Origin: an uncultured Bdellovibrionales bacterium
Lineage (GTDB): Bacteria; Bdellovibrionota_C; UBA2361; SZUA-149; CAYOZL01
NCBI GenBank assembly: GCA_964408435.1
Contig: CAYOZL010000002.1
Span: 344 to 64,343, forward strand
Length of the DNA stretch: 64,000 bases
Direction of reading: 5' to 3'
Shown here: piece after piece, positions 23,146-53,973 of the stretch
Layout of the letters: every line of letters begins with the position of its first letter
Position numbering within the stretch: position 1 is the first letter of the stretch
Notes under the pieces: model-generated
Told to the model about the DNA's origin: nothing
What the model saw: the letters and a program-made list of their open reading frames with translations, nothing else
Databases searched by the model: none
Made by a program: the position numbers and the translations under genes

Positions 23146-23880
23146 TTATAATACTGCTTCTTTCAAAGCTTTATTAGGGCTAAATTTAACTCTTTTTCTA
23201 GCAGAAATTCTAATAACTTCTCTAGTTAAAGGATTAATTCCCATTCTAGCCTTACTCTTTCTTACGTACATCTTACCTAAGTTTGGTAAAGGTACTCGAT
23301 ATCCGCTCTTTAAAGACTCATGAATAATTCCAACAAAAGATGCATAGAATTCTTTAGCATTCTTCTTTGATGTGAAACCAACATAAGAAACTAAATTGTC
23401 ATACAGCTCAGATTGCGAATACTTATTAGTAGCTGAGTTCTTAGGCTTACTAAGCACTTTTTTACTCGGCGCTAAATAAGTAGGCTTTTTAACAACTACT
23501 TTAGCTACTTTTTTAACTGCTTTTTTCTTAGCCTTCTTCTTAGCAGGCTTTTTCTTTGCTACTTTTTTCTTAGTAACTTTCTTTTTAGCCTTCTTTTTAG
23601 TTACCTTCTTCTTAGTTGTTTTCTTTTTTGTAGCTTTCTTTTTAACTACCTTTTTCTTAGTAGCTTTTTTCTTAGCTACTTTCTTCTTAGTAACTTTCTT
23701 TTTAGCAGTCTTTTTCTTAGCTGCAGCTTTTTTCTTTACTGGCTTTTTTTTCGTAGTTTTCTTCTTTGTAGCTTTTTTCTTTGTTACTTTCTTTTTAACT
23801 ACTTTTTTCTTAGTAGCTTTTTTCTTAGCTGGTTTCTTTTTTGTTGTTTTCTTTTTAGTTGCCAATTTAATTTCCTCCAA
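23146..23880 (-). CDS. histone H1-like lysine-repeat protein fused to an HU/IHF-type DNA-binding domain
   Basis: The N-terminal ~150 aa consist of KKK(A/T/V)TKKKV repeats. The C-terminal ~90 aa (RVPLPNLGKMYVRKSKARMGINPLTREVIRISARKRVKFSP) form an HU fold with a beta-arm. Confidence 0.8.
   Translation of the reverse strand: MEEIKLATKKKTTKKKPAKKKATKKKVVKKKVTKKKATKKKTTKKKPVKKKAAAKKKTAKKKVTKKKVAKKKATKKKVVKKKATKKKTTKKKVTKKKAKKKVTKKKVAKKKPAKKKAKKKAVKKVAKVVVKKPTYLAPSKKVLSKPKNSATNKYSQSELYDNLVSYVGFTSKKNAKEFYASFVGIIHESLKSGYRVPLPNLGKMYVRKSKARMGINPLTREVIRISARKRVKFSPNKALKEAVL
23500..23870. repeat. tandem ~30-nt coding repeats (lysine-rich decapeptide repeats) within the HU-like gene
   Basis: Visible periodic units such as cttagtagctttttt, cttagctactttctt and cttagtaactttctt. 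The unit number could vary. Confidence 0.7.
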
Positions 23881-24058
23881 AATACATGTTAAAAATAAAC
23901 TTAAATAAAACTACTTCCCTAATTTATTTAGATTGTAAAACGTAAAACATTGATTAGCTTATAAAGTGTTTAAACACGTTAAAAACTAATTACTAATACT
24001 ACCGCTACTTGTTATAGAATTATTGGTCAAGAAAAATCAATAAAAAAAAGTGAATTTA

Positions 24059-36442: not shown

Positions 36443-36754
36443 TTAATTACAATTCATATAAGCATCCCAAGGGCTGTATAAATAACCTACATATGGGAGT
36501 GAACCTACTAAGCCTGGTAGAAAGCTTCTTTGCACTGTAACTGAGCTCCAACTAGAGCAGTTTTGATTCTTGGTTGAAATTGGCTCACTAAACTCAACTA
36601 AACTTATAATTCCAATGTGATGCCAATTATCAAAATCTTGACCTACTATATCTATATTTGAAGTTGGTGAAGATGCTGCTTTTTTAAAATGCATTGTATG
36701 ACAAGCTGATAACAATGGAATAAGTAAAGCTAATGATAAAATTTTATATTTCAT
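36443..36754 (-). CDS. Bor/Iss-family-like small lipoprotein (divergent paralogue)
   Basis: Lipobox LLSAC. The C-terminal half (FLPGLVGSLPYVGYLYSPWDAYMNC) parallels the Bor C-terminus of the adjacent gene. Confidence 0.5.
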   Translation of the reverse strand: MKYKILSLALLIPLLSACHTMHFKKAASSPTSNIDIVGQDFDNWHHIGIISLVEFSEPISTKNQNCSSWSSVTVQRSFLPGLVGSLPYVGYLYSPWDAYMNCN

Positions 36755-36781
36755 TTTAATTCTCCTATATTTTTCACTAAT

Positions 36782-37072
36782 CTATCTACACCAAACTCGA
36801 TAAGAGCGTGGGGAATATATACCTAATGTAATGGCACCTAATAACCCATCTATAAAAGTTGTTTGGGCTTGAAATTGTTTCGGTGTTGCTCCACCACAAT
36901 GATTAGCTAAAACAACATCAACTGATTCTGGAGTTAATCCCCATAAGAAAAAGTCAGTACTTTCTGAAACATCAGCATTAGAACTAACTCTTTGACCACC
37001 ATCTGGTCTTACAGTTACATTCGCACAAGAAGGCAACAGAAAGCTTAGACATAAAAATAAAATTATTCTCAT
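36782..37072 (-). CDS. bor: Bor/Iss family lipoprotein (phage lambda Bor-like)
   Basis: HCGGATPKQFQAQTTFIDGLLGAITLGIYSPRSYRVWC closely matches the conserved Bor core CGGAENVVKTETQQTFVNGLLGFITLGIYTP...C. The protein is ~96 aa and is a lipoprotein. Confidence 0.75.
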   Translation of the reverse strand: MRIILFLCLSFLLPSCANVTVRPDGGQRVSSNADVSESTDFFLWGLTPESVDVVLANHCGGATPKQFQAQTTFIDGLLGAITLGIYSPRSYRVWCR

Positions 37073-37290
37073 ATAGACCTCATTAATTAATAAATTAATA
37101 GATTATTAACATATGATATTATTTTAGACTAAGAGTTTATCTTGGTCTAAACAACTAATATATCTATCAATTTATATGCTTGGGTTGAATTAAGGGTTTC
37201 ATCTTTCATAATCAGTCCAGAATATAAATGTTTATAGCAAAATTTTTATTAAGAACGATTAAGTTTTTTTAATTTGACGATGAATATATT

Positions 37291-37755
37291 ATGGACAACA
37301 AGGAATCAGGTTTCACTCTTATAGAACTTTTAACTACAGTTGCTATCATTGGGATTTTAGCATCGATAGCAATACCTGAATATAATCAATATAAATCAAA
37401 AGCTTATAACGCTGTAGCATCGAGTGCTGCTAAGACTTTTTTTACTGCAGCAATTGCTAGAAGAACTGATAATGATTTTGACATACACGAATGCGCAACT
37501 CTTAACGCAGGAGATCATGATGTGCGTTGTGGTAACTTTGAAGGATTTGTAGATGATGGTGTGATAATGTGTGAATTGGTTAGTGAAGGTGAAGGGGATG
37601 GCGGGACGATAGGAAATATTGTTGCTGGTTGCGCTCATCTAAAAGGGAATAAGGCATATTCATACTCACTATTCGATCTATCAAGTCGAGATTTTGGATT
37701 ATTAATATGTGACTGTGATGATGATTTTTGTGACGGTGGTGACATTCTTTGTTAG
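37291..37755 (+). CDS. type IV pilin / pseudopilin (prepilin N-methylation motif) with a Cys/Asp-rich C-terminus
   Basis: SGFTLIELLTTVAIIGILASIAIPEY is the canonical class III signal and N-terminal helix. The C-terminus is LLICDCDDDFCDGGDILC. Confidence 0.8.
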   Translation: MDNKESGFTLIELLTTVAIIGILASIAIPEYNQYKSKAYNAVASSAAKTFFTAAIARRTDNDFDIHECATLNAGDHDVRCGNFEGFVDDGVIMCELVSEGEGDGGTIGNIVAGCAHLKGNKAYSYSLFDLSSRDFGLLICDCDDDFCDGGDILC

Positions 37756-37805: not shown

Positions 37806-37848
37806 TGGTGATACTTAGACTTGAACTAAGGACCTCGGAATTATGAGT
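37806..37848. repeat. 43-bp direct repeat (distal att-like copy of the tRNA 3' end)
   Basis: tggtgatacttagacttgaactaaggacctcggaattatgagt is identical to 42234..42276, which is the 3' 43 nt of the tRNA gene. Confidence 0.85.
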
Positions 37849-38104
37849 GGAATCTTTTTGAATTTTGTACACTCTTAATAACTTGTATATACCTAGCAAG
37901 TATTTATACTTCTTGAATTTCTCAATTTAATCAAATCTAAAGGTATTTCTTGGTTTCATAGAGTATTTGAGGGATTTCTTGCCCCCGGCATGCCCCAGAA
38001 TTGGGAAAGTTGCTGGAACAAATAGTGAGGCGTTGTTTGTAATAGGGGAATTTGGTCTTTTAAAGTTAAGTAAATATGCATTGACTGAAAAAACTCTATT
38101 AATT

Positions 38105-39403
38105 TTATTTTCTTAATTTCTTTTTTATACAAGTTGGGCACCATCCACCATTACGAATGCTAATTGGAGATGCTTTCCATTTATGCTTGAATTCACATTG
38201 CCATTCTAGCTTTGTTTTGGTGCCTAAATATTCTTTTGATAAACAGATACCTTTTCTCATTTTTGCAATTTCCTGCATACCCTCAATTGAATATAGTTTT
38301 TCACCAAAGCATATAGGACACCACATTCCTAAAATTACGGCTCTAGGATATGCTTTAAATTTGTGTTGTTTTGAACATGTGAAACTAATTTTACATGTAC
38401 TTAGAACCGCTGTTTTGTGTATGCACTCACCTCTATGTGACTTAGCGATTTTTTTCATCTGTTCAAGCGAGTATTTTCTAAGTTCAATATGTGCACACTT
38501 AGCGCACCAAGCTCCTTCTAGAATATTACTACCTCTAATTTCCCATTGGTGACCTTTAGAGCACTCAAAAAGTAATTTATGGAAATTATTTACATATTTT
38601 TCAGATAAGCATTTTCCTCCTTCTAATTCAGCGATAGTTTTGAAGTTTTCTATCGATAAGGATCTAGTTGGATTGCAAGATGGACACCATGAACCTTTTT
38701 TTATGTTAGCTGGCGTAGAAAGCCATTTGTGCCCAAGTTCACATTCCCACTCTAAGTGTGTTACAGCATTAAGATAGTTATTAGAAAGACATCTACCACC
38801 TTTAGATTTAGCAATTTCTTGCATTTCTTCTATGGTTAAAGGTCTTGAATTGGAACATAAGTAACACCAGGAACCGCTCTTTACTGAACCTGGATTGGCG
38901 TACCATCGATGTCCATTTGAACATTCCCACTCTAGCTTAGTATTGGCATTTTTATATACGGTAGAAAGACATCTACCACCTTTAGATTCAGCAATTTCTT
39001 GCATTTCTTCTATGCCTAAAGGTCTTGCACTGGAACATAAGCGACACCAACTTCCTTTTTTTACTGAATGAGCAGTGGCAAACCATTGATGTCCTTTTGA
39101 ACATTCCCACTTTAGCTTAAGATTGACATTTTTATATACTTTAGAAAGACATTTGCCTCCTCTGGATTTAGCAATTTCTTGCATTTTTTCTAATGACAAA
39201 GGTCTTGCTCGAGAACAAAGAAGGCACCATCTTCCTCTCTCTACTTGTGGTGGAAGAGCATGCCATCGATGTCCTTTGCTGCACTCCCATTCTAATTTAG
39301 TTGAAGTATTTATATATTCTTTTGAGATGCATTTCCCACCTCTGGATTCCGCAATTTTTTGCATGTCCTCGATTTTGAGTTTGCGATATTTGCGTTTAGC
39401 CAT
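38105..39403 (-). CDS. multi-zinc-ribbon repeat protein (7 tandem 60-aa C-C-H-C-C modules), paralogue A
   Basis: Repeats follow the pattern IEEMQEIAxSxGGKCLSxxYxNxxTKLEWECSxGHxWxAxPxxVxxGxWCxxC. The likely true start is the ATG at 39401-39403 (MAKRKYRKL), preceded by GAGG. The ORF track used an upstream TTG. Confidence 0.7.
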   Translation of the reverse strand: MAKRKYRKLKIEDMQKIAESRGGKCISKEYINTSTKLEWECSKGHRWHALPPQVERGRWCLLCSRARPLSLEKMQEIAKSRGGKCLSKVYKNVNLKLKWECSKGHQWFATAHSVKKGSWCRLCSSARPLGIEEMQEIAESKGGRCLSTVYKNANTKLEWECSNGHRWYANPGSVKSGSWCYLCSNSRPLTIEEMQEIAKSKGGRCLSNNYLNAVTHLEWECELGHKWLSTPANIKKGSWCPSCNPTRSLSIENFKTIAELEGGKCLSEKYVNNFHKLLFECSKGHQWEIRGSNILEGAWCAKCAHIELRKYSLEQMKKIAKSHRGECIHKTAVLSTCKISFTCSKQHKFKAYPRAVILGMWCPICFGEKLYSIEGMQEIAKMRKGICLSKEYLGTKTKLEWQCEFKHKWKASPISIRNGGWCPTCIKKKLRK

Positions 39404-39650
39404 ATCAAACCTCAATTAAAACATTAAATCAGTCAAAGCATAAACATTAATCCTAATGTTTATGCTCGTGAAAATTAAATTCTACCCGATAAATTTCAGT
39501 ATTTGTAAGTAGTATGAAAAGAACTTCTAATAGCTTAATATATCACAGTGTTTTGGCAAAAACTAGACGTGAATAAGTTAAGATTGTTATTAATAAGATT
39601 TTTTAAAATTTAAGGAGGCTTGCCAAATATTTAATAACCTTTAAAGTTTT

Positions 39651-40706
39651 TTATAAATCTTGTTCTTTCCCTTGGTAGAGTTTTCGTAGGGAATCTAAGT
39701 TTAATTTGCTATCTGTTGGTAACTCATTAAACGCTCTAACAGCTTGTTCTCGAACAGTTTTATCAGGGCAATTAAAAACAGACATAAGCACGGGTGCTAA
39801 TATGGCAGTTGCTCTGCTGACACTTCTATCTAGTTCAAGACCAAGCTCTACCCCGCCATTTGAGAAGGCTTCGATTAGATCGGTAATTGTTTTGAAACTA
39901 AGAGTAGTGTCTTCAAAATCAACTTCTTCTAGCTCTTGATCTATTAAGTTTAGAATGCCATCAAATGCAAAACCGATTACTTCAATTGCAGAGAGCTCTT
40001 TAGTTGAGGTAAGGAAAAGTTTTTTTCCTCTTCCAGCTGGTGCTGACCAACGTTCTAGCCTAGTACTGTTACTCCGTGTTCTTTTTATTTTTCCAAGTGA
40101 TTTTCTAAGTGCTGCTCCAAGCTCGTGAGCAGTAAGATTCTTTTCAATGACCTCACTTGCATATCTTTCCATTTCCTTCTCAGTTGGAAATTGAGCAATC
40201 CTATAGGCCATCGTCAACGGAATTTTACTTTCATCAATAAGGTGAAGTATATTTTTGGGTAGTTTCAATAAACGAACAGTTTTCTTTATTAAATCGATAC
40301 TGTAGGTTGGTAAACTTTCGTGAAGTTGTCTTGCTCCCCAACCTTTTTCAGTCATTACAGCCTGAAAGGATTCTGCACGTTCTGAGGCTAGAAGATCTTT
40401 CTTAGCGCCGTCTTCAACAAGCTGATCCATGATAATATCCACTCTACTCATGGTTACATCACTGACAATGCTTGGAGCTTTTTCCCAGCCAAGATGCTTC
40501 ATCGCTCTTAGTCTTATTTCGCCAGAGATTAAAATGAATCTGTCTCCATTTGGTCTGACTTTAATTCTTCTTTTCAGGTCGTTTTTTTCAATACTTCTTG
40601 CTCTTTTTTCAATGTCTTTCTCTGTGATGGTTTTTCGAGGTTGATTTGGATCGAAATCAATCAAAGCTATATCAATATCCATCATTTGATCTGGTTTTTT
40701 GGCCAC
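39651..40706 (-). CDS. ParB/Srx-like nuclease-domain protein with HTH (orphan, no ParA)
   Basis: IDIALIDFDPNQPRK...IKVRPNGDRFILISGEIRLRAMKHLG matches the ParB N-terminal box including GxxRxxA. An HTH follows, and the C-terminal region is helical. Confidence 0.7.
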   Translation of the reverse strand: MAKKPDQMMDIDIALIDFDPNQPRKTITEKDIEKRARSIEKNDLKRRIKVRPNGDRFILISGEIRLRAMKHLGWEKAPSIVSDVTMSRVDIIMDQLVEDGAKKDLLASERAESFQAVMTEKGWGARQLHESLPTYSIDLIKKTVRLLKLPKNILHLIDESKIPLTMAYRIAQFPTEKEMERYASEVIEKNLTAHELGAALRKSLGKIKRTRSNSTRLERWSAPAGRGKKLFLTSTKELSAIEVIGFAFDGILNLIDQELEEVDFEDTTLSFKTITDLIEAFSNGGVELGLELDRSVSRATAILAPVLMSVFNCPDKTVREQAVRAFNELPTDSKLNLDSLRKLYQGKEQDL

Positions 40707-41067
40707 GGTAAATCCCTTATAAAAACGCTATTGAGATTGTTAGTTATTTGGCAATAAATCGCCCCAAATAATTATAATAATTATCTAAGACAACTTATTA
40801 GTTTTATGGCTGATATTTAAATTATAAAGAACGAATAGATTGAGTTATATTTTCATAGAGTAGATTTTACTATAAAATAGTGATAAATTGCAAATCAGCT
40901 GAAATAATACCTAGAATTACTTATAAGTCGTTAAAATATAAGATTTAGAAATTATAACAGTAAGTTCTTTTATAATTATATAATTGTAGAACCTTATTTA
41001 ATGCGTGAAAAGAGATTTGAATTACTTTTCACGCTTTGACTGGTTATTGTTTTTTTTGAGGTTTGTC

Positions 41068-42174
41068 ATGGCAAGACTTAGATATACGATTAAGGATATG
41101 CAAAAAATTGCTACATCAAGAGGTGGTAAATGCTTATCAGATAGCTACGCAGGTCTAAAAACCAAACTTGAGTGGCAATGCGCAGATGGGCATCGTTGGA
41201 ATTCTACACCTCATAGCATTATTTATACTAAGTCATGGTGTTTAGCTTGTGCAGGAGTTAAGCCACTAACATTAGACGAGATGCAAAAGATTGCTAAATC
41301 TAGAGGTGGTAAGTGCTTATCTAAGGAGTATTTTAACAATAGAACTAAACTCGAATGGCAATGCGCAAATGGACATCGCTGGTTTGCTGCTCCTAAAGAT
41401 GTAAAAAAGGGAACATGGTGTTTTTATTGTTCCAGCACTAAATTAACAATTGAAGAAATGCAAGAAATTGCTAAATCAAGAGGTGGTAAGTGTTTGTCTA
41501 GAGATTACTTAGGAATTTTTACTAAACTAGAATGGGAATGCGCAAAAAAGCATCGTTGGCAAGCCCAACCTAATGACATTAGAAAGGGAGGATGGTGTCC
41601 TTATTGTAGTGGAAGACTATCTAGGACAATCGAAGAGTTTCAACTAATTGCTGAACTCGAAGGTGGCAAGTGCTTATCTACGGAATATGTAAAAGATTTG
41701 ATTCCTCTACGCTTTAGATGCTCGGAAGGTCATGAATGGGAAGCAATAGGAAGTAATATAAAAAAGGGAACATGGTGTCCTGTATGCTCTAATCGAAAGT
41801 ACTCAATTAGGGAGATGCAAGAGATAGCGGAGTCTCAAAACGGTAAGTGCTTGTCTAAAGGCGTCATTACTAGAAAAACAAGAGTGGAATTTCAGTGTAA
41901 GGAAAAACATGTTTTTAGAGCACTTCCTAGAGCTATTGAGTTCGGTATGTGGTGTCCTAAATGTTTTGGAGACAAGCTGTATACCATTGAAGGAATGAAA
42001 GAAATTGCAAAAATGAGAGGTGGAGACTGTTTATCTAAGGAATATTTAGGTGTTACGAAAAAGCTTAAATGGACTTGTGAATTTTCCCATACTTGGACTG
42101 CACTCCCTAATCCTATTAGAGATGGAGGATGGTGTCCTGTTTGTTTTGAGATTGCAAGAAAGAAACAGATTTAA
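41068..42174 (+). CDS. multi-zinc-ribbon repeat protein (6 tandem 60-aa modules), paralogue B
   Basis: It has the same repeat architecture as paralogue A and a homologous C-terminus (GGWCPxC). The preferred start is ATG 41068 (MARLRYTIKDMQKIA), preceded by GAGG. The GTG at 41005 used by the ORF track is less likely. Confidence 0.7.
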   Translation: MARLRYTIKDMQKIATSRGGKCLSDSYAGLKTKLEWQCADGHRWNSTPHSIIYTKSWCLACAGVKPLTLDEMQKIAKSRGGKCLSKEYFNNRTKLEWQCANGHRWFAAPKDVKKGTWCFYCSSTKLTIEEMQEIAKSRGGKCLSRDYLGIFTKLEWECAKKHRWQAQPNDIRKGGWCPYCSGRLSRTIEEFQLIAELEGGKCLSTEYVKDLIPLRFRCSEGHEWEAIGSNIKKGTWCPVCSNRKYSIREMQEIAESQNGKCLSKGVITRKTRVEFQCKEKHVFRALPRAIEFGMWCPKCFGDKLYTIEGMKEIAKMRGGDCLSKEYLGVTKKLKWTCEFSHTWTALPNPIRDGGWCPVCFEIARKKQI

Positions 42175-42233
42175 AAAAGGTTTGTCAGTCAAAGTAATTA
42201 CATAATTACTCAATTAAATCGATAAGCAAAAAA

Positions 42234-42307
42234 TGGTGATACTTAGACTTGAACTAAGGACCTCGGAATTATGAGTTCCGCGCTCTAACCAGCTGAGCTA
42301 TATCACC
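42234..42307 (-). tRNA. tRNA with CAU anticodon (elongator Met, or Ile2-lysidine type)
   Basis: The minus-strand sequence GGTGATATAGCTCAGCTGGTTAGAGCGCGGAACTCATAATTCCGAGGTCCTTAGTTCAAGTCTAAGTATCACCA folds into a cloverleaf. The acceptor stem is 7 bp, the anticodon stem-loop is CGGAA/CTCATAA/TTCCG, and the T-loop is TTCAAGT. The G1:C72 pair argues against an initiator. Confidence 0.85.
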
Positions 42308-42467
42308 CTAGGATTTGCTTTGTTTTTGAGGTGAGAATCTACTTATTCTTTCCAATTTTAGCAATACTAATAGCATTAAATACATATAAATAAGCTTGTA
42401 TTATATATCTTGAGTCAAGAGTAAGTAGGTATGATTTGTTTGTTTTTCAGGTTTTTGAAGCTAATAA

Positions 42468-42497: not shown

Positions 42498-42599
42498 ATT
42501 TTATTATTAGCGTAAACCTCGGAAAAATCGTTCTAAACGATTTTGAGAATGAAGAAAAACAAACACATCATACCTACGTTTTATTTATCTATCAAGAAT

Positions 42600-45963: not shown

Positions 45964-46896
45964 TTATAGATAACTATCTAAAGTAGATTTTAATCCTGTT
46001 TTTAAATCATATTGAGGATTCCAAGCTAACTCATTTTTTAACTTTCCTGAGTCTATAACACTTCTCATCTGCTCACCTGGTAAAGCATCTTTGTATTCTA
46101 TTTTAACATCTTTTTGCCACAGTTCTTTTAAATTCTTAGCGATTTGATTTACTGAATTTTCAACCCCTAAACCTACATTAAATAATTCAAAGCTACCTGC
46201 TCTAAATTCTTTTTTAGAAGCTAATAAACAAGCATTAACAACATCTAATACATGAACAAAATCTCTAGTTTGCTCACCACTGCCGTAAATAGTTAGAGGT
46301 TTATCATCTATTAGTTTTTCACAAAATATTGCTACTACTCCAGCTTCACCTTTAGGGTTTTGTCTTGGGCCATAAACATTCGAAAAGCGTAAAGAAACGT
46401 TATGCATACCGTATTCCCTTGCATAAAAATCTAAGTATAACTCAGCTGCTTTTTTACTCTGACCGTATGGAGATTTTGGAGCATTAACATGAGTCTCATC
46501 TGCAGGAAAACTTTCTTGTTCACCGTATATCGCTCCTCCAGTAGATGAAAAAACTATTTTTTTACATCCTGAGCTTTTGCAAGCTTCAAGTACTGAAACC
46601 GTACCTTCTACATTTACCTTTGCATCAAACATAGGATCTTCAACGCTCTTTCGAACATTCATTTGAGCTGCTAAATGAAAAACAACATCAGGTTTAAAAT
46701 TTTTAAATATTTCTACTAAATTCTTATCACAGATATCTATCTTTTCGATTTGTATCTTGTTCTTAACAGATTCTAGGTTTTTCTCTTGACCACTTGAAAA
46801 ATTATCAATTACTAGTACTTCGTAAGTATTTTTAACTAGTGCATCAACTACATGAGAGCCAATAAATCCTGCACCACCTGTAACGACTGCTTTCAT
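45964..46896 (-). CDS. NAD-dependent nucleotide-sugar epimerase/dehydratase (GalE/WcaG-like SDR)
   Basis: GGAGFIGSH Rossmann motif and a YxxxK SDR active site. Confidence 0.8.
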   Translation of the reverse strand: MKAVVTGGAGFIGSHVVDALVKNTYEVLVIDNFSSGQEKNLESVKNKIQIEKIDICDKNLVEIFKNFKPDVVFHLAAQMNVRKSVEDPMFDAKVNVEGTVSVLEACKSSGCKKIVFSSTGGAIYGEQESFPADETHVNAPKSPYGQSKKAAELYLDFYAREYGMHNVSLRFSNVYGPRQNPKGEAGVVAIFCEKLIDDKPLTIYGSGEQTRDFVHVLDVVNACLLASKKEFRAGSFELFNVGLGVENSVNQIAKNLKELWQKDVKIEYKDALPGEQMRSVIDSGKLKNELAWNPQYDLKTGLKSTLDSYL

Positions 46897-46917
46897 TTTA
46901 TCCTCTTCATAAATAGT

Positions 46918-47847
46918 TTATAGCCTAGAACTAAATTCCTTAATTGTTCTATTCAACCCTTCTTCAAAACTAATTTCAGGTTCCCAGTTTAGTTTTTCTT
47001 TTGCAAGACTAATATCTGGTTTTCTTCTAGTTGGATCATCTTGAGGAAGTGGTTTGTTTATTATTTCCGAACTTGAACCAGTTAATTCTAGAACTTTTTT
47101 TGCAAGTTCCATTACTGTAACTTCGTGTGGGTTACCTAAATTTACTGGGCCAGTAAAATCTTCACTATCCATCATTTTTAAGATTCCATTTACTAAATCA
47201 TCAACATAGCAAAAAGACCTAGTTTGTTCTCCATTTCCATAAACTGTAATTGGTTCAGATTTTAAAGCCTGAACAATAAAGTTAGAAACAACTCTACCAT
47301 CATTAAAAAGCATACGAGGTCCAAAAGTATTAAAAATTCTTATTACTTTTACATCCACTCCATTTTGTCTATTGTAATCCATAGTTAGTGTCTCAGCGAC
47401 TCTCTTACCTTCATCATAGCAACTTCTAATACCAATTGGATTTACATTTCCCCAGTAGCTTTCTGTTTGGGGATGCTCTAATGGATTTCCGTAAACTTCA
47501 GAAGTTGAAGCTAACATTATTCTAGCGCCAACTCTTTTTGCTAAACCAAGCATATTAATAGTGCCCATCACATTTGTTTTAATGGTTTTTACAGGATTAT
47601 ATTGATAATGAACCGGGGAAGCAGGACAAGCAAAATGAAAGATTTTATCAACTTCTAAAAGTATAGGCTCAGTTACATCGTGCCTAATAAACTCGTAGTT
47701 TGGGTTAGAGGCATGCAATTTTACATTTTCAAGTCTGCCAGTAAAAAGATTATCAAGGCATATAACTTCATTGCCTGCATCTAATAGCTTTTGGCATAAA
47801 TGAGACCCAATAAAACCTGCTCCACCTGTAACTAGTATTCTTGCCAT
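46918..47847 (-). CDS. UDP-glucuronate decarboxylase (UDP-xylose synthase-like SDR)
   Basis: [34 protein letters not shown]...[11 protein letters not shown] is typical of the UXS/ArnA-C-terminal family. The gene is adjacent to ugd. Confidence 0.8.
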
Positions 47848-47859
47848 TTCTATTTTCCG

Positions 47860-49227
47860 TTAAGCTCTATTTGCTACAGTTTTATGCAAACCTGAGCTAA
47901 GTATAGCCTTTGGTGATACTGCAGGCCTACCAATTGAATAATAAGTAAAACCTAATCTTCTCATTTTAGATGGATCAAAAAGATTTCTTCCATCAAAAAC
48001 AACAGGCTCTTTTAAACTTTCTGCAAGCTTTCCAAAATTTGGTCTTCTAAACTCATTCCACTCAGTAACAATTAGTAAAGCATCTGCTTGTTGAATCGCA
48101 TCAAAGCTATTTTCTATAAACTCTATATTATCACTATTATCTTTAAATATATCTTTTGCTACCTCTATTGCTTCAGGATCGTATGCTCTAACTTTAGCAC
48201 CTTTGCTTATTAATTCATTGATAATATCAATACTTGGAGCTTCTCTCATGTCATCAGTATTTGGCTTAAAAGCAAGACCCCATATCGCAAATGTTTTTCC
48301 TTTAATATCTCCGAAATGTTCAATTACCTTTTTAACTAATCTTTTCTTTTGCTTGTTATTAACTGAGTCTACAGCTTTAACAATTTCAAAATCAACATCA
48401 TGTTCACCAGCAGTTCTTACTAAAGCTCTAATATCTTTAGGAAAACAAGAACCACCATAACCAACACCAGGAAATAAAAAGTTAGGCCCAATTCTAGAAT
48501 CAGTACCAATTCCTAGTCGAACTTGAGAAACATCTGCCTCAACTTCTTCACAAAGATTAGCAATCTCATTCATAAAAGTTACTTTTGTAGCTAACAAAGC
48601 ATTAGCTGCATATTTAGTAACCTCAGCACTTTTATTATTCATTACTAATATTGGATTATTAGTTCTAACAAATGGAGAGTATAGTTCTCTCATTACTTCA
48701 GCTGCTTCAACACTGTTAGTTCCAATAACTACTCTATCTGGCTTCATAAAATCTTCTATCGCTGAGCCTTCTTTTAAAAATTCTGGATTTGAAACTACAT
48801 CAAAAGGCATACTTGTATGTTTTGAAATTTCATTAGCTACAAGCTTTGCAGTTCCAACTGGAACTGTTGATTTGTTAACTATTATTTTAGGACCATTCAT
48901 TTCTTTACCAATAGTTTCTGCTACTGCAAGAACAAATTTCAAATCAGCTGATCCGTCTTTATCTTGTGGAGTTCCTACTGCAATAAAAATAACTTCAGAA
49001 CCTTTAATGCATTCAACAACATTTGTTGTAAATTGAATCCTACCGGCTTTAGCATTATTCTCAATTAGCCTATCTAAACCTGGCTCATAGATTGGAACTT
49101 CACCCCTATTAAGCATATCAATTTTTTCTTGATTGATATCTGCACAAATCACATCGTTTCCACTTTCAGCAAAACATGCCCCTGCAACTAAACCAACATA
49201 ACCTGAGCCAACTACTCCAACGTTCAT
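47860..49227 (-). CDS. ugd: UDP-glucose 6-dehydrogenase
   Basis: VGSGYVGLV Rossmann motif and the catalytic cysteine region GGSCFPKD. Confidence 0.9.
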   Translation of the reverse strand: MNVGVVGSGYVGLVAGACFAESGNDVICADINQEKIDMLNRGEVPIYEPGLDRLIENNAKAGRIQFTTNVVECIKGSEVIFIAVGTPQDKDGSADLKFVLAVAETIGKEMNGPKIIVNKSTVPVGTAKLVANEISKHTSMPFDVVSNPEFLKEGSAIEDFMKPDRVVIGTNSVEAAEVMRELYSPFVRTNNPILVMNNKSAEVTKYAANALLATKVTFMNEIANLCEEVEADVSQVRLGIGTDSRIGPNFLFPGVGYGGSCFPKDIRALVRTAGEHDVDFEIVKAVDSVNNKQKKRLVKKVIEHFGDIKGKTFAIWGLAFKPNTDDMREAPSIDIINELISKGAKVRAYDPEAIEVAKDIFKDNSDNIEFIENSFDAIQQADALLIVTEWNEFRRPNFGKLAESLKEPVVFDGRNLFDPSKMRRLGFTYYSIGRPAVSPKAILSSGLHKTVANRA

Positions 49228-49252
49228 ATTTTATTCCTTAATAGTCTTTGCT

Positions 49253-50722
49253 TTAATAAGCGTTTTTGTCTTTTATAATTTTAAAAATAGTTAAAAAAAG
49301 TATCTTTATATCCAACATAAATGACCAATTTTCAATATAATAAAGATCACACTCTATTCTTTTTTCAATTGAAGTGTTTCCTCTCCAACCATTTACCTGA
49401 GCCCAGCCAGTCATGCCAGCCTGAACTTTGTGTCTTAACATATACTTAGGTATTTTCGTTCTAAATTCATCAATAAACACTGGCCTTTCAGGTCTTGGCC
49501 CAACAAGAGACATCTGTCCCTTTAACACATTAAATAACTGAGGTAATTCATCCAAGGAGAACCTTCTTAGAAACTTACCAAAGATTGTTGTTCTAGGATC
49601 ATCTTTAACTGCAAACACAGCTCCTTTTTCCTCTGCGTTTATTTTCATTGTACGAAATTTGTAGATATTAAATCTTTGACCATCTAAACCTAATCTTTCT
49701 TGAACAAAAAATGTTGGCCCTCTAGATGTAAGCTTTACGACAGCGCAAAGTAACAACATTACTGGAGCAAGTAAGAGGATAAACAAGCTAGAGAAAATTA
49801 TATCAGCAAGTCTTTTAATAAATTTTTTCATTCCGATTAAAGGTGTAGCTGCCAAGCTAACAACAGGCAGGCCATCAAATTCTTCAATTGCTGAACCTAA
49901 TTGAATGAATCTATGCACATCAGGTACGATTTTAACATCAACCATCGAATCCCCTATAGATGAAATTAGAGACTCAAGTAAGTCATGGTCTTGTAAAGGC
50001 ATTGCTATAATTAGTTGATCAATATTATGTGCTGCTAACACTTGTGGAAGTTGATCGTAAGTTCCAATAATTGGAAGGTTTTTTGTTTTTTGTTCAATAG
50101 CTAAGGCGTTTGAACCACTAATGTTATAGTTAAAAGCCTTAGAAGATACTGTCTTTGAAAAAGCATGTTCGCCCCTTTCTAAGCAACCAACTAACTTCAT
50201 ACCAAACTCAGGTCTGTTCTTTACTCTTGCTGCTATTTTTCTAGCTAAAACGCCTGAACCAACTAATAAAGTATAGCGAAGATTATAGCCTTTTTTACGT
50301 ATCTGCTTTAAGAAATTTCTAATTAGAAACCTATTTGCAGTTAAGCAAATTGAAGAAACAACAAAAAAGATTAGGAAAACTAATCGAGATAAGGGGATAC
50401 TTTTTTCCCAAAATAAATATGCAAAAGCTACAAGAACTAAAACACTAAATGCATTAGACCGTAGGAGTTTAAAAATTTCTCCATACTTTCCGTGCCCTCG
50501 CATTGGTTTATACAAACCACTTCTTCTAAATACAAAACCCCAGATTATGCAGATGAAAACAATCATCTTAAAATAATAAGTAAACTCAGGTATACCTTTC
50601 TCTATGGGGAAAAGATTGGTGTGGAACCTAAGCCAATAACTAAGCACCCAGGCAATACATACAATTGCTAAGTCAGATGCTTTAAATACAGCTTCAAATA
50701 TTTGCGAGTGTTTTTTTAACAT
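49253..50722 (-). CDS. undecaprenyl-phosphate hexose-1-phosphate transferase (polyprenyl glycosylphosphotransferase, WbaP/WcaJ-like)
   Basis: N-terminal TM helices and a C-terminal sugar-transferase domain with DELPQLFNVLKGQMSLVGPRPERP. Confidence 0.85.
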   Translation of the reverse strand: MLKKHSQIFEAVFKASDLAIVCIAWVLSYWLRFHTNLFPIEKGIPEFTYYFKMIVFICIIWGFVFRRSGLYKPMRGHGKYGEIFKLLRSNAFSVLVLVAFAYLFWEKSIPLSRLVFLIFFVVSSICLTANRFLIRNFLKQIRKKGYNLRYTLLVGSGVLARKIAARVKNRPEFGMKLVGCLERGEHAFSKTVSSKAFNYNISGSNALAIEQKTKNLPIIGTYDQLPQVLAAHNIDQLIIAMPLQDHDLLESLISSIGDSMVDVKIVPDVHRFIQLGSAIEEFDGLPVVSLAATPLIGMKKFIKRLADIIFSSLFILLLAPVMLLLCAVVKLTSRGPTFFVQERLGLDGQRFNIYKFRTMKINAEEKGAVFAVKDDPRTTIFGKFLRRFSLDELPQLFNVLKGQMSLVGPRPERPVFIDEFRTKIPKYMLRHKVQAGMTGWAQVNGWRGNTSIEKRIECDLYYIENWSFMLDIKILFLTIFKIIKDKNAY

Positions 50723-51902
50723 CTTTATTAAAATCTACTATCTTACTATTTGTTTTACTAATTTCTTTTTCAAGTTTACTAGTAAGTAATTTTTTAAATT
50801 TAGTTTTAAAAGAGTTTTGTGAAAATCTACTAGCCTGATTAACACACTTTTCAATTGTAATCTCTTTATCTAGTTCTATGAACTTATCTATAGCATTTAT
50901 AATACTTTCTTTACTATTATTTTCATAGAATATGCCTGTTTGCTCATTAATTACAGTCTCTAAAGCCCCTCCTTTTCCAAGAGCGATTACACCTAAGCCA
51001 TTTGCTTGTGCTTCAAGTGGCACTATTCCAAAATCTTCTTCTGCCCCGAAGATTAAAGCTCTAGACTCTGAATATAAACTTCCAAGTTTAGCTTCACTTA
51101 CACGACCAAGTATTTTAATATTACTCTTTGCTATTTTTTTAATTCTAGAAATCTCTGGTCCTGAGCCAACAATATTAAGCTCATATCCAAGCTCATTGAA
51201 TGCTAAAACGATAGTATCAACATTTTTATAAGGCACTAGCGCACTAACACAAAGAAAGCTATTTTTATTCTTGCCCTGATTTAAGCTAGTATCATTTTTA
51301 TTTGTATTACTAATCCATTCAGTTTTTACAGGTGGATATAAAACTTCAGAATCTAAATTATACACTTTTCTTATTCTTTGTTTTATATATTCACTAATGC
51401 AGACAAAGCTATCTACATTTTTACTTCCTTCTAAGTCCCAAGAGCGTAAATACTTAGTTACTATCTTAACAAAAGGCTCATACCATTTACTTTTAAAATA
51501 GGAGTCGTATTTATCCCAAAGGTATCTAGCAGGGGTTAAGCAGTAGCAAAGATGAAAGCTATCGACTTTAATATTCTTTGCTAAACAATGACTAATGCTA
51601 ATTACAATATCATACTCTTTCTTATTTATTTTTTTAGAAAGAGAATTACTAGCTACTGGATAAAAAGGTAATAAGTACCTGTATACATACTTAGCAAAAG
51701 GAGTTAAATTTAAAATAGAAGTGTAAACATCTTTAGAGTTTATTATTTTTGAAACATTTTTAGGCTCATAAAAAGCCGTATAAATATCTGAGTTAGGATA
51801 GAGTTCTAATATATTCTCTAAGCACTTTTCCCCACCTCTCATTCCCACAAGCCAGTCGTGAACAATTGCAATCTTTAATTTACTGCTCATTATCTTATGC
51901 AA
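50694..51902 (-). CDS. glycosyltransferase family 4
   Basis: GT-B fold with a C-terminal E-x7-E region (EDFGIVPLEAQANGLGVIA). Confidence 0.7.
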   Translation of the reverse strand: MHKIMSSKLKIAIVHDWLVGMRGGEKCLENILELYPNSDIYTAFYEPKNVSKIINSKDVYTSILNLTPFAKYVYRYLLPFYPVASNSLSKKINKKEYDIVISISHCLAKNIKVDSFHLCYCLTPARYLWDKYDSYFKSKWYEPFVKIVTKYLRSWDLEGSKNVDSFVCISEYIKQRIRKVYNLDSEVLYPPVKTEWISNTNKNDTSLNQGKNKNSFLCVSALVPYKNVDTIVLAFNELGYELNIVGSGPEISRIKKIAKSNIKILGRVSEAKLGSLYSESRALIFGAEEDFGIVPLEAQANGLGVIALGKGGALETVINEQTGIFYENNSKESIINAIDKFIELDKEITIEKCVNQASRFSQNSFKTKFKKLLTSKLEKEISKTNSKIVDFNKDVKKTLANI

Positions 51903-52998
51903 CCTTTACTGCTTTTTCTTCTAATACATTATAAGCACAGCTTAGATCTTTAAATAAATTTACAATTTTAGAATCAAATGAAGACTTATTAAATCTTTCT
52001 GCTATCTCCTTGCCTAGTTTTACTCTTTTTTCTCTATTTTTATGGTCATTACTCATTTGCCTAATTGCTTTTGTAAGTGATTGGCTAGAAAATTTATCAG
52101 CATACCAAATAGAATCTGAGAAGTTCTCAACTAAGCAAGGTAGGGCAAATGCTACTACTGGTATTCCAATTTTTAATGCTTCTAGAGCTGGGATACAAAA
52201 ACCTTCCTCTAATGACGGGATAACTAAGGCTTTAGCATTTTGATATAGTTTTCTAAGTTCATTTTCATCACAATTCTTTTTTAAAATAACATTATCTTGT
52301 TTTAAATTTGACTTACTTCCTAATATAATTAAATCACTTGTGCTCTCTTGTTCTTTCCAAGCCTTCAGTAAAAGATTTAAACCCTTATGCTTCAAGTCAC
52401 TAGATATGCATAAGTAATAGTCTTTTTTTTCACTTGAAATTCCTTCAAGTGAAGCTTGTATGTAATTTGAAATCTTCTCAATTTTTTTATTTTTTAAATA
52501 AAAATTATTTTCAATTTGATTTTTACTATAATTACTAACAGTAAAAACTAAATTACTTCTTTTTAAAGCATGAGAAATAGAAAAACGACTAAAAATTCTT
52601 TTAAATATGTTGCTACTGTTTAAGTGTATGCAATCATGAATAGTGCAACTTACTTTAGAGTTTTGTGGTAAAAAATACGGAACGGTATAGTGAGGAAAAT
52701 GTAAAATAGAGTTCTCTAGTCTTTTTTTTAGCTTTAAAGGCATAAAAAATGACTCAGCAAATGAGTATTTCTTAAAATTACTCTCTATAATCTCGATATC
52801 TGCCAAGCTTTTAAATAACTCAGACTTTTGTTTCAAGACCTGTTTAGAAGCTATTACTGCGACTTTAAACAAGCCACTACTAACTAAGGCTTTAATAGTA
52901 TTCTCAGTATAAACACCAATTCCTCCATCACAGAGTTTTCTAGCGTCTATAACTACTCTAGGAACTTCTCTTAGATTTTTAGTTGAATCAAAAGACAA
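51895..52998 (-). CDS. glycosyltransferase family 4
   Basis: GT-B fold (EGFCIPALEALKIGIPVVA). Confidence 0.7.
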   Translation of the reverse strand: MSFDSTKNLREVPRVVIDARKLCDGGIGVYTENTIKALVSSGLFKVAVIASKQVLKQKSELFKSLADIEIIESNFKKYSFAESFFMPLKLKKRLENSILHFPHYTVPYFLPQNSKVSCTIHDCIHLNSSNIFKRIFSRFSISHALKRSNLVFTVSNYSKNQIENNFYLKNKKIEKISNYIQASLEGISSEKKDYYLCISSDLKHKGLNLLLKAWKEQESTSDLIILGSKSNLKQDNVILKKNCDENELRKLYQNAKALVIPSLEEGFCIPALEALKIGIPVVAFALPCLVENFSDSIWYADKFSSQSLTKAIRQMSNDHKNREKRVKLGKEIAERFNKSSFDSKIVNLFKDLSCAYNVLEEKAVKVA

Positions 52999-53973
52999 TT
53001 AGGCCACATTAACGATTTTCTTACTGCCTCTATACACTTCTCTTACAGAATAAGTCTTTTTATTTTGAGACTCATGGTATGTTCTAACTAATACTTCTGC
53101 CAGAATTCCAAAACAAAAGAATTGCAAACCAATTAAAATAAGCATTACAGAAATTAAAAGCATTGGTCTGTTACCGATTGCCATATTTAAAAATACTTTT
53201 TCAAATGTAAGAACAGAAAGCATTAAAGCTCCTAAACCACCACTAAGCATTCCAAAAGATCCAAACATATGTAGTGGTCTTGTTGCGAAGCCTAAAAAGA
53301 ACCTAACTGTAAGTAAATCTAATATAACTCTAAATGTTCTTGAAATTCCATACTTAGAAGTACCGTGAATTCTAGGTCTATGTTTTACCGGAATTTCAGC
53401 AATTCTCACTCCCATACTAGCTGCAACCGCTGGTATGAACCTATGCATCTCACCATAAAGTTGAATACCTTTTGCCACTTCTTTCTTAAATGCTTTTAAA
53501 GTACAACCATAGTCATGAAGTTCAACATTTGTAGTTCTTGAAATTATTCTATTTGCAATCATCGAAGGAATTTTTCGAGACCACATTTTATCCTGTCTAT
53601 CTTTTCTCCAACCTGCAACTAGGTCGTAACCTTCATCCATTTTTTTTATTAGATTAGGAATCTCAACAGGGTCGTTTTGTAGGTCTCCATCAAGAGTAAT
53701 TATAATATCACCCTCTGCATAATCAAAGCCTGCCGCCATTGCAGCAGTTTGGCCAAAATTTCTTCTAAATTCTACAATTCTAGTTCTTGTATCAAAGCCT
53801 GCTACTTCAATCAGTCTTGTAACTGTTTTATCTTTTGAGCCATCATCAACAAATACAAACTCTGCATTAATGTTATTTGAATCAATTACATTAACAATCT
53901 CTAGGTATAACTGTTCAACGTTTTCCACTTCATTATAAAGTGGTATAACTAACGATATTAATCTTTTATCCAT
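52999..53973 (-). CDS. polyprenol-phosphate glycosyltransferase (GT2, ArnC/GtrB/DPM1-like)
   Basis: LISLVIPLYNEVENV...VDDGSKD...DGDLQNDP and two C-terminal TM helices. Confidence 0.8.
   Translation of the reverse strand: MDKRLISLVIPLYNEVENVEQLYLEIVNVIDSNNINAEFVFVDDGSKDKTVTRLIEVAGFDTRTRIVEFRRNFGQTAAMAAGFDYAEGDIIITLDGDLQNDPVEIPNLIKKMDEGYDLVAGWRKDRQDKMWSRKIPSMIANRIISRTTNVELHDYGCTLKAFKKEVAKGIQLYGEMHRFIPAVAASMGVRIAEIPVKHRPRIHGTSKYGISRTFRVILDLLTVRFFLGFATRPLHMFGSFGMLSGGLGALMLSVLTFEKVFLNMAIGNRPMLLISVMLILIGLQFFCFGILAEVLVRTYHESQNKKTYSVREVYRGSKKIVNVA

Follow-up and report, generated by a model that had tools for sequence, protein, structure and literature searches.

What does a ParB-like gene do on a mobile element that carries no partition partner for it? 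This question is raised by a 64,000-nucleotide stretch of DNA from an uncultured Bdellovibrionales bacterium (contig CAYOZL010000002.1; the whole 64-kb stretch is called the window below). The gene at 39651..40706 had been described, from the letters alone, as a stand-alone ParB/Srx-like protein lying between zinc-ribbon repeat genes on a horizontally acquired islet, and possibly acting as a clamp or nuclease in defence or anti-defence. Our analysis identifies it as an orphan member of the ParB-CTPase family in which the usual C-terminal dimerisation domain is swapped for a lineage-specific domain of about 150 amino acids (aa). The islet is bounded by copies of a transfer RNA (tRNA) sequence, the gene is found in conserved association with two zinc-finger-array genes, a short motif brackets these array genes, and the nucleotide pocket of the ParB-like protein is a variant one. 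The gene and its domains are located as follows.

39651..40706, minus strand: ParB-like gene (P0001), 351 aa, GTG start codon
about 40443-40688, minus strand: ParB_N domain of the ParB-like protein (Pfam, aa 7-88)
about 40101-40397, minus strand: ParB helix-turn-helix (HTH) domain (Pfam, aa 104-202)
about 39654-40100, minus strand: lineage-specific C-terminal domain (aa 203-351)

A Shine-Dalgarno-like AAGGGA lies 5' of the GTG start codon. The string that had been quoted as the ParB N-terminal box, GDRFILISGEIRLRAMKHLG, is present, and this part of the protein matched ParB_N (PF02195) in Pfam with an E value of 2.7e-12 and 47 bits (cut-off 26.3). The HTH that had also been proposed was recovered as HTH_ParB (PF17762; E 2.6e-10, 40.8 bits, cut-off 22.6), and the NCBIfam model TIGR00180 parB_part was passed with 69.9 bits (cut-off 58.45). 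Residues 10-207 aligned with solved ParB, Spo0J and Noc structures. An AlphaFold model, computed from an input alignment of 59 sequences, showed predicted local distance difference test (pLDDT) values of about 86-98 over aa 1-205. The fold comparison suggested as a check, performed with Foldseek against the PDB, matched these residues to Noc (7nfu), ParB (7bnk, 6sdk and 6t1f) and KorB (8qa9), with E values of 1e-9 to 1e-11 and about 200 columns each. Judged by its domains, the protein belongs to the DNA-clamp/regulator branch of the ParB family and not to the Srx, SerK or nuclease-type folds; nothing in this ParB_N plus ParB HTH architecture indicates the nuclease activity that had been entertained for it.

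Past aa 202 no Pfam match was obtained. The dimerisation domain PF23552, which is carried by most of the canonical ParB matches according to precomputed Pfam lists, was not found in P0001, and Foldseek yielded no PDB match to the C-terminal part. Nor was the ParA-binding peptide, for which [LFI]G[KR]G[LFI] is the published definition, found at the N-terminus: nine aa precede the first beta-strand, and the columns of the canonical LG...GL are gaps in all family members. Within the C-terminal domain, a family-invariant segment W-x5-RG-x-[KR]-L-[FY] (aa 220-232, window about 40011-40049) is predicted to form a beta-hairpin. In one relative, P0121, this segment reads IGRGM, one residue off the ParA-binding consensus.

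The orphan status of the gene was examined across the window. No match to the deviant Walker A motif KGGxGK[ST] was found in the six frames, and Pfam scans of 35 window open reading frames (ORFs) found neither a ParA (CbiA/ParA) nor an integrase. The ORFs identified by Pfam included IspH, BacA, LipA, MetK, a FadB-like enzyme, RapZ, LipB, ThyA and glycosyltransferases; LepA was identified via its translation and the gene list of a matching contig. The parS sequence (TGTTNCACGTGAAACA) did not occur above chance in the window (one match with three mismatches, at 23934, versus 1.46 expected), and no Noc-binding sites above chance were detected there. With the Noc equivalog model TIGR04285 the protein scored 95.4 bits, far under the cut-off of 315 bits. 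Its best non-family homologue, P0002, showed 35% identity over 53% of the query. Orthology with chromosomal ParB, which would have weakened the mobile-element interpretation, was not supported, because P0002 is this distant and is encoded in a parAB operon near mnmG and rsmG (mnmE-mnmG-rsmG-parA-parB), and the window gene is placed between rapZ and lepA.

The ParB-like protein was a singleton in a collection of 5.8 billion protein clusters, in which the next matches were ordinary ParBs aligning to the first half only. When aa 200-351 were used in a HMMER search of 1.84 billion representatives, three proteins were matched. P0122 (360 aa) has the same architecture and is encoded on a 35.8-kb ENA metagenome contig (L081); P0121, which comes from a metagenome-assembled genome at NCBI, is a fragment of 260 aa; P0123, repetitive and 1626 aa long, matched 57 residues of the domain and was regarded as spurious. 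A profile search with a four-sequence family alignment gave no further full-length members, the scores falling from about 600 to 153 bits. Scans of IMG/VR and JGI metagenomes with this alignment gave no family members and three ParB matches limited to the N-terminal part. A scan of the genome collection with the ParB-like protein found nothing, and an exact-sequence look-up of P0001 in the contig index returned no record.

Contig L081, of very different base composition (higher G+C), carries the gene order ZnR426-ParB361-ZnR423-ZnR371-ParB360-ZnR429 on a single strand, which is a ZnR-ParB-ZnR unit repeated twice in tandem. Compared with the window protein, its ParB paralogues show 39-42% identity across the full length, including the C-terminal domain. 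The window contains one ZnR-ParB-ZnR unit, with the upstream zinc-finger gene inverted relative to L081. This shared gene order, together with the AELEGG signature described below, identifies the zinc-ribbon genes, at the level of sequence, as conserved partners of the ParB-like gene and not mere neighbours, and the description of the protein as stand-alone can no longer be upheld. The two partners in the window are the following.

38105..39403, minus strand: ZnR436, probable ATG at 39403, 432 aa (mechanical ORF from TTG 39415; P0257, 432 aa, on the same contig); seven tandem CapR/DUF4379 modules of about 60 aa and no other domain, AELEGG in module 5
41068..42174, plus strand: ZnR389, probable ATG at 41068 with a GAGG Shine-Dalgarno, 368 aa (mechanical ORF from GTG 41005; P0218, 100% identical); six tandem CapR/DUF4379 modules, AELEGG in module 4

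Zinc-ribbon repeat genes on both sides of the ParB-like gene had been reported, in agreement with the Pfam matches of their products (DUF4379, 60.8 and 67 bits versus a cut-off of 24.5; CapR, 49 and 31.5 bits versus 24.2). All six linked zinc-finger proteins of the window and L081 consist solely of 6-7 tandem modules of about 60 aa with the consensus TIEEMQxIAxxRGGKCLSxxYxNxxTKLxWxCxxGHxWxAxPxxVxxGxWCPxC, in which C...C..GH...WC..C is invariant in every module. The arrays also matched the DNA-binding parts of phage HNH/T5orf172-type endonucleases (PHROG 559 and 681, about 1e-43 to 1e-50); no nuclease domain was found in the flanking array proteins. By these matches, the arrays are assigned to the CapR/DUF4379-type DNA-binding modules. 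CapR is the sequence-specific zinc-finger DNA-binding domain of phage homing endonucleases; both PLE satellites and CasPR anti-CRISPR proteins have recruited it for the repression of transcription. The model of ZnR389 (pLDDT 87.5) showed six repeated helix-plus-beta-hairpin units, and Foldseek found no significant match to it in the PDB (best E 0.028, unrelated folds).

Analysis of sequence collections showed that CapR/DUF4379 arrays are widespread (3,667 matches, bacteria and archaea). The four solitary array genes examined occur in defence-island, mobile or phage-like settings with no ParB gene. Among the solitary array loci (L086-L091), the neighbours are AbiEii, QatB/TatD, an MmeI-type restriction-modification gene or IS21, or the contig is phage-like; the array gene of L086 lies between direct repeats of about 40 nt, which suggests that the gene itself is an insertion. 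The ParB-linked arrays form a distinct subgroup, in which the signature IAE[LM]E[GQ]G, referred to as AELEGG, marks one module of each protein (six of six). Among the best 120 zinc-finger-array homologues this signature was present in three, all from the window and L081, and a scan of IMG/VR with the AELEGG module found nothing. The two window genes (38105-39415 and 41005-42174) are 55% identical paralogues in opposite orientation, their L081 equivalents being all direct. They surround the ParB-like gene as imperfect inverted repeats of about 1.1 kb, with nucleotide arms of up to 168 nt at 70-86% identity.

Each end of the two array genes is marked by a copy of the bracket motif.

38078..38088, plus strand: GCATTGACTGA, just 3' of the ZnR436 stop codon, directed into the gene
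39429..39439, minus strand: GCTTTGACTGA, 26 nt 5' of the ZnR436 ATG
41032..41043, plus strand: CGCTTTGACTGG, 25 nt 5' of the ZnR389 ATG
42185..42195, minus strand: ACTTTGACTGA, 11 nt 3' of the ZnR389 stop codon, directed into the gene

The motif GC[CTA]TTGACTGR (written GCNTTGACTGR below) was found at 12 of the 12 ends of the six ParB-linked zinc-finger genes, in all cases facing inward. The original prediction had noted that neither ParA nor a parS-like array is present; this is true of ParA and parS in the window, but the islet does have a repeated array of its own, namely these four copies. Alignment of the L081 intergenic regions revealed an invariant CGCCTTGACTG located 24-37 nt 5' of each zinc-finger start codon and a reversed copy, CCAGTCAATGCG, directly after each zinc-finger stop codon. 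YTTGACTGR was observed four times in L081 versus 0.41 expected, a number that none of 200 shuffles reached. For TTGACTG, four of the five copies in the window are no more than 60 nt away from the end of a zinc-finger ORF, a placement with a chance of about 1e-9 by our own estimate (the target amounts to about 240 of 64,000 nt). The motif was not found at the ends of the four solitary zinc-finger genes that have no ParB neighbour. The L081 copies that lie upstream form near-palindromes of 16 bp (CCTTGAC TG GTCAAGG), and the downstream copies are hairpins of the form GCATTGAC-N19-26-GTCAATGC, with one compensatory G/C exchange and z-scores of -1.9 to -5.0.

The possibility that the TTGACT of the motif is a sigma-70 -35 element was considered and rejected: no -10 hexamer is present at 16-18 nt, and the start codon follows 24-37 nt downstream with the Shine-Dalgarno sequence in between. 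A sigma-70 promoter and terminator scan gave 17 sites versus 16.5 expected, that is, no excess.

The module is enclosed by the following pair of sequences.

42234..42307, minus strand: intact tRNA-Met gene (CAT), 3' end toward the islet and the zinc-ribbon gene
37806..37848, no strand assigned: distal att-like repeat, exact 43-nt copy of the 3' part of tRNA-Met (CCA to anticodon loop)

Positions 42234..42276 and 37806..37848 are identical at 43 of 43 nt, and the identity breaks off abruptly on both sides, in the anticodon loop. Duplication of a tRNA's 3' part in direct orientation is a classic mark of integrase-mediated insertion into a tRNA gene. Horizontal acquisition of the islet had been proposed, and this exact repeat bounds the element accordingly. 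Between the repeats the islet extends from 37849 to 42233 (4,385 bp), with a G+C content of 35.1% versus 31.4% for the window and three sizeable genes. No integrase was found among its three ORFs or among the scanned ORFs of the window. The islet is either the remnant of a larger element or an element that is mobilised by the integrase of another one. Two other datasets, a JGI metagenome and an SRA run, contain the same strain with the islet in place and unchanged. Locus L001 shows local synteny with the window but is too distant, and a genome scan with LepA gave relatives of at most 64% identity among the matches listed.

How might such a module work? We tentatively favour the view that the ParB-like protein is a nucleotide-gated DNA-binding regulator of the KorB/BisD/VirB type, acting on GCNTTGACTGR sites with or on the zinc-finger arrays. 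The protein would bind the sites around the zinc-finger genes, close there as a nucleotide-gated clamp and, once closed, control transcription of the three-gene module. For the arrays there would be two possible roles: cargo under the control of the protein, or site-specific partners keeping the clamp on chosen DNA sequences in the manner of KorA with KorB. This proposal is preferred because the islet context, the conserved second DNA-binding protein and the sites at gene starts and ends resemble KorB-KorA/TrbA and BisD-BisC, in which ParB clamps cooperate with a second DNA-binding factor on mobile elements.

KorB of RK2 is similar to the window protein in combining a ParB-CTPase domain with a ParB HTH and in residing on a mobile element. 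It regulates transcription from short operator sites near promoters, to which the GCNTTGACTGR sites may correspond; the N-terminal 205 aa or so of the window model superpose on 8qa9 with a template modelling (TM) score of 0.70-0.71, normalised to the target. KorB is a cytidine triphosphate (CTP) clamp that is loaded at OB sites, 16-bp operators, and locked at promoters by its site-specific partner KorA or TrbA. Differences are also apparent. KorB has a full GERR/ENLQR-type pocket, whereas that of the window protein is a variant; KorA is a small HTH dimer, whereas the window partners are zinc-finger arrays of 6-7 modules; and the window protein has no demonstrated sequence orthology to KorB. 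In addition, KorB works with the ParA protein IncC and dimerises through an SH3-like C-terminal domain, and the OB sequence is not known to be related to GCNTTGACTGR.

BisD, encoded on ICEclc, and VirB, from the virulence plasmid of Shigella, are orphan ParB-like CTP clamps on integrative or mobile DNA; they are loaded at a few parS-like sites and regulate genes of their element, as the window protein may do. Their activation or anti-silencing extends over tens of kb, whereas the window element measures 4.4 kb. BisD has a unique extra domain required for its work with the partner BisC; the extra domain of the window protein is unrelated (three relatives), its partner is a zinc-finger array, and its nucleotide binding is a prediction.

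With ParB/Spo0J and Noc, the window protein shares ParB_N, HTH_ParB, QPR, the GExRxRA core, the overall fold and the TIGR00180 pass. It differs from them in having no ParA, parS or Noc-binding site in the 64 kb, no ParA-binding peptide and no PF23552, in its location on an islet, and in the changes R64 to I, P47 to R, N99 to D and R102 to K, as well as in the replacement of H166 and R168. The N-terminal extension of Noc carries a membrane-binding helix; the window protein has no extension at this position.

The partner proteins resemble CapR of PLE, CasPR and homing-endonuclease arrays in their CapR/DUF4379-type zinc-finger modules, which are often repeated. Nuclease-free CapR-type proteins are sequence-specific roadblock repressors in mobile-element conflicts. 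CapR and CasPR have 1-2 CapR domains together with AP2 or HTH and are encoded by phages or satellites, whereas the window proteins are pure arrays of 6-7 modules that contain the AELEGG module, are paired with a ParB-like gene and are bracketed by a conserved motif.

The nucleotide pocket was compared with those of 56 canonical ParB/Noc sequences. Q22-P23-R24, G62, E63, R65, R67, A68 and E98 are kept, and the core reads G62-E63-I64-R65-L66-R67-A68, with the minimal P-motif GxxR and QPR both present. The full motifs are altered, GERRxR to GEIRLR and ENLQR to EDGAK. Absence of the ParB-box residues had been named as evidence against the original prediction: QPR and GxxR are there, but the first arginine of GERR and most of ENLQR are replaced. 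In B. subtilis ParB, CTP binding requires G77 and R80 and hydrolysis requires E78 and E111. Binding of a nucleotide by the window protein is plausible; the preference of a ParB fold for CTP, ATP or GTP is not predictable from sequence alone. CTP binding is not to be assumed, because the ParB box is a variant one. The loss of the Box II arginine and the gain of an arginine in Box I are family-wide and may be compensatory. In the GHAR region, H166 and R168 of canonical ParBs are replaced, which would fit a different DNA specificity. The substituted pocket positions are listed below.

Position 47 (Box I loop), proline to arginine; relatives have arginine; canonical conservation 100%
Position 64 (first arginine of GERR), arginine to isoleucine; relatives have methionine; canonical conservation 100%
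Position 99, asparagine to aspartate; relatives retain asparagine; canonical conservation 100%
Position 101, glutamine to alanine; relatives have glutamate or aspartate; canonical conservation 84%
Position 102, arginine to lysine; relatives retain arginine; canonical conservation 100%

The changes at positions 47, 64, 99 and 102 count against a nucleotide-gated regulator, and they are joined by several further points. Both GERR arginines matter for CTP binding in S. coelicolor ParB, and clamp closure is uncertain because the pocket deviates at positions conserved at 100%. The AlphaFold model has a pLDDT of 40-75 over aa 206-351, and the dimerisation that a clamp requires is uncertain. The motif is near-palindromic in L081 only; the window has half-sites, a poor fit to a dimeric HTH protein. 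Its reader could instead be the zinc-finger arrays, which are asymmetric, or it could function at the RNA level, since the 5' and 3' copies of one transcript complement each other. Finally, two full loci and one fragment are known, and the gene association thus rests on few independent events.

In a more far-reaching form of the idea, which we consider speculative and rather improbable, the module would silence DNA in a programmable way. Long specific sequences in a competing mobile element, a phage or host genes would be recognised by the arrays, which would capture or load the clamp through its C-terminal domain and the AELEGG module, and a point repressor would in this way become a spreading or locked complex. 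If true, ParB clamps would gain a new class of partner, and arrays derived from homing endonucleases a new output.

Among the competing explanations, the one that survives best, although still unlikely in our judgement, assigns the active part to the zinc-finger genes. These would be selfish or regulated cassettes, the motif would be read by the arrays in autoregulation or serve as an RNA stem or a recombination site, and the ParB-like protein would be an accessory regulator without nucleotide cycling. The motif is indeed tied to the ends of the zinc-finger genes and not to those of the ParB gene, and it is asymmetric in the window; within one transcript, the 5' copy and the 3' copy complement each other at 9-11 of 9-12 nt. 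The window has one zinc-finger gene in the opposite orientation to its L081 counterpart, an arrangement that flipping of bracketed cassettes would produce, although no recombinase is encoded at either locus. The pocket substitutions could have abolished binding of a nucleoside triphosphate (NTP); the retention of QPR, G62, E63, R65, R67 and E98 suggests, on the other side, selection on the pocket. That solitary zinc-finger genes have no motif also speaks for the regulator proposed above, since the motif goes together with a ParB-like gene.

A targeted nuclease or defence module, in which nuclease-less homing-endonuclease arrays direct a ParB-fold NTP-dependent nuclease or nickase to foreign or competitor DNA, is somewhat more doubtful. 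It would account for the match of the arrays to DNA-binding regions of phage endonucleases of the HNH and T5orf172 kinds (E about 1e-50) with no nuclease domain, and for the solitary relatives found beside AbiEii, QatB/TatD, an MmeI-type restriction-modification gene and IS21; ParB-fold domains are also known fused to HNH nucleases and in DndB-type systems. However, a search with PADLOC (PADLOC-DB 2.0) gave zero matches for all three proteins and no relatives were found in IMG/VR, results that do not favour the defence or anti-defence role suggested for the gene. The complete ParB HTH with the TIGR00180 architecture is typical of clamps, no nuclease active-site motif was identified, and the neighbourhoods in the window and L081 consist of housekeeping or polysaccharide genes and not of defence islands.

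The islet could also be read as the decayed partition locus of a plasmid or an integrative and conjugative element that has lost ParA, parS and integrase, leaving a gene that is now functionless. Orphan ParBs are common on mobile elements, and att-like repeats without an integrase around just 4.4 kb are what such a remnant might leave. All three ORFs are intact, however, and the three-gene unit is found twice on the unrelated, higher-G+C contig L081 with full-length protein identities of 39-42%. The absence of the ParA-binding peptide and the presence of the new C-terminal domain in all family members point to an old, selected architecture and not to recent decay, and the islet is unchanged in two other datasets; decay therefore appears improbable. 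A merely divergent orthologue of the host's own chromosomal ParB or Noc, as the top profile matches to ParB and Noc might suggest, is effectively refuted by the position of the gene inside a tRNA-bounded islet at RapZ-LepA, far from an origin-type context, by the Noc model score (95 bits versus 315), by the lack of parS and Noc-binding sites in the window and of both the ParA-binding peptide and the ParB C-terminal domain in the protein, and by its singleton status among 5.8 billion protein clusters.

Additional features were observed between and around the genes of the module.

39437..39466, minus strand: hairpin with arms of 13-14 bp and a U-rich tract, 3' of the ParB-like stop codon (z = -4.6; 0 of 200 shuffles fold as well)
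40768..40784, no strand assigned: ATAATTAT-A-ATAATTAT, 62-78 nt 5' of the ParB-like start codon; third copy at 40972-40979

The hairpin is terminator- or attenuator-like and abuts the upstream bracket copy of ZnR436; ZnR436 probably depends on read-through, because the hairpin leaves about 35 nt to its start codon. Approximate ATAATTAT palindromes in the divergent promoter region 40707..41004 had been put forward as operators of the ParB-like protein. Three exact copies do occur in this region (298 nt, 23% G+C), with P about 0.001 by local first-order composition for a word chosen post hoc; in the whole window, seven copies were counted versus 6.75 expected. No counterpart was found upstream of the L081 ParB genes, where shared 8-mers form no conserved block. 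The ATAATTAT sites may be real, but the bracket motif is much better supported as candidate operator. Within 40864-40917, a palindromic TTGCAA (40888-40893) could act as a -35 element shared by plus-strand TAGAAT and minus-strand TAAAAT; these divergent promoter-like sites would give 5' untranslated regions of about 145-150 nt for ZnR389 and the ParB-like gene, although the overall promoter scan showed no excess of sites.

In the JGI contig L092, otherwise 99.97-100% identical, 73 bp at 42394-42466, between tRNA-Met and the metallophosphatase gene, are missing. A 24-nt inverted repeat (42425-42448 and 42554-42577, 96% complementary) lies beside this stretch. On the other side, the region from rapZ to the islet (36443-37755) contains a small lipoprotein-like ORF (36443-36754), a Bor-family lipoprotein gene (36782-37072) and a type IV pilin-like gene (37291-37755), and it may be an older variable region adjoining the same tRNA. 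Both ParB-zinc-finger loci lie within a few kb of polysaccharide-biosynthesis genes (Bac_transf sugar transferase, epimerases and glycosyltransferases; window 45964-53973, L081 1-3180), which is probably a coincidence. Elsewhere in the window, the gene at 23146-23880 on the minus strand encodes an HU-type DNA-binding protein fused to a lysine-rich N-terminal half resembling histone H1-like HC2.

Taken as an observation, the original prediction is confirmed, and its interpretation is partly supported. That orphan ParBs are common on mobile elements and that ParB-like clamps regulate transcription was already known. Our literature search found no paper linking a ParB with CapR/DUF4379 arrays, and in it neither the C-terminal domain nor the bracket motif nor the conserved association with arrays made purely of CapR/DUF4379 modules was found described. 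Partners or targets are known for very few of the orphan ParB-fold proteins of mobile elements, the worked examples being KorB-KorA, BisD-BisC and VirB. The locus described here offers a compact testable system, with an altered pocket, a new C-terminal domain, two array partners and four 11-12-nt sites in 4.4 kb. If the pairing is not functional, it is still a clear case of an integrase-less tRNA islet with an unusual ParB variant. A functional pairing would extend the scheme of a clamp with a site-specific locking factor to a new partner class, and it would link CapR-type arrays, known as roadblock repressors in phage-satellite and anti-CRISPR conflicts, to ParB clamps.

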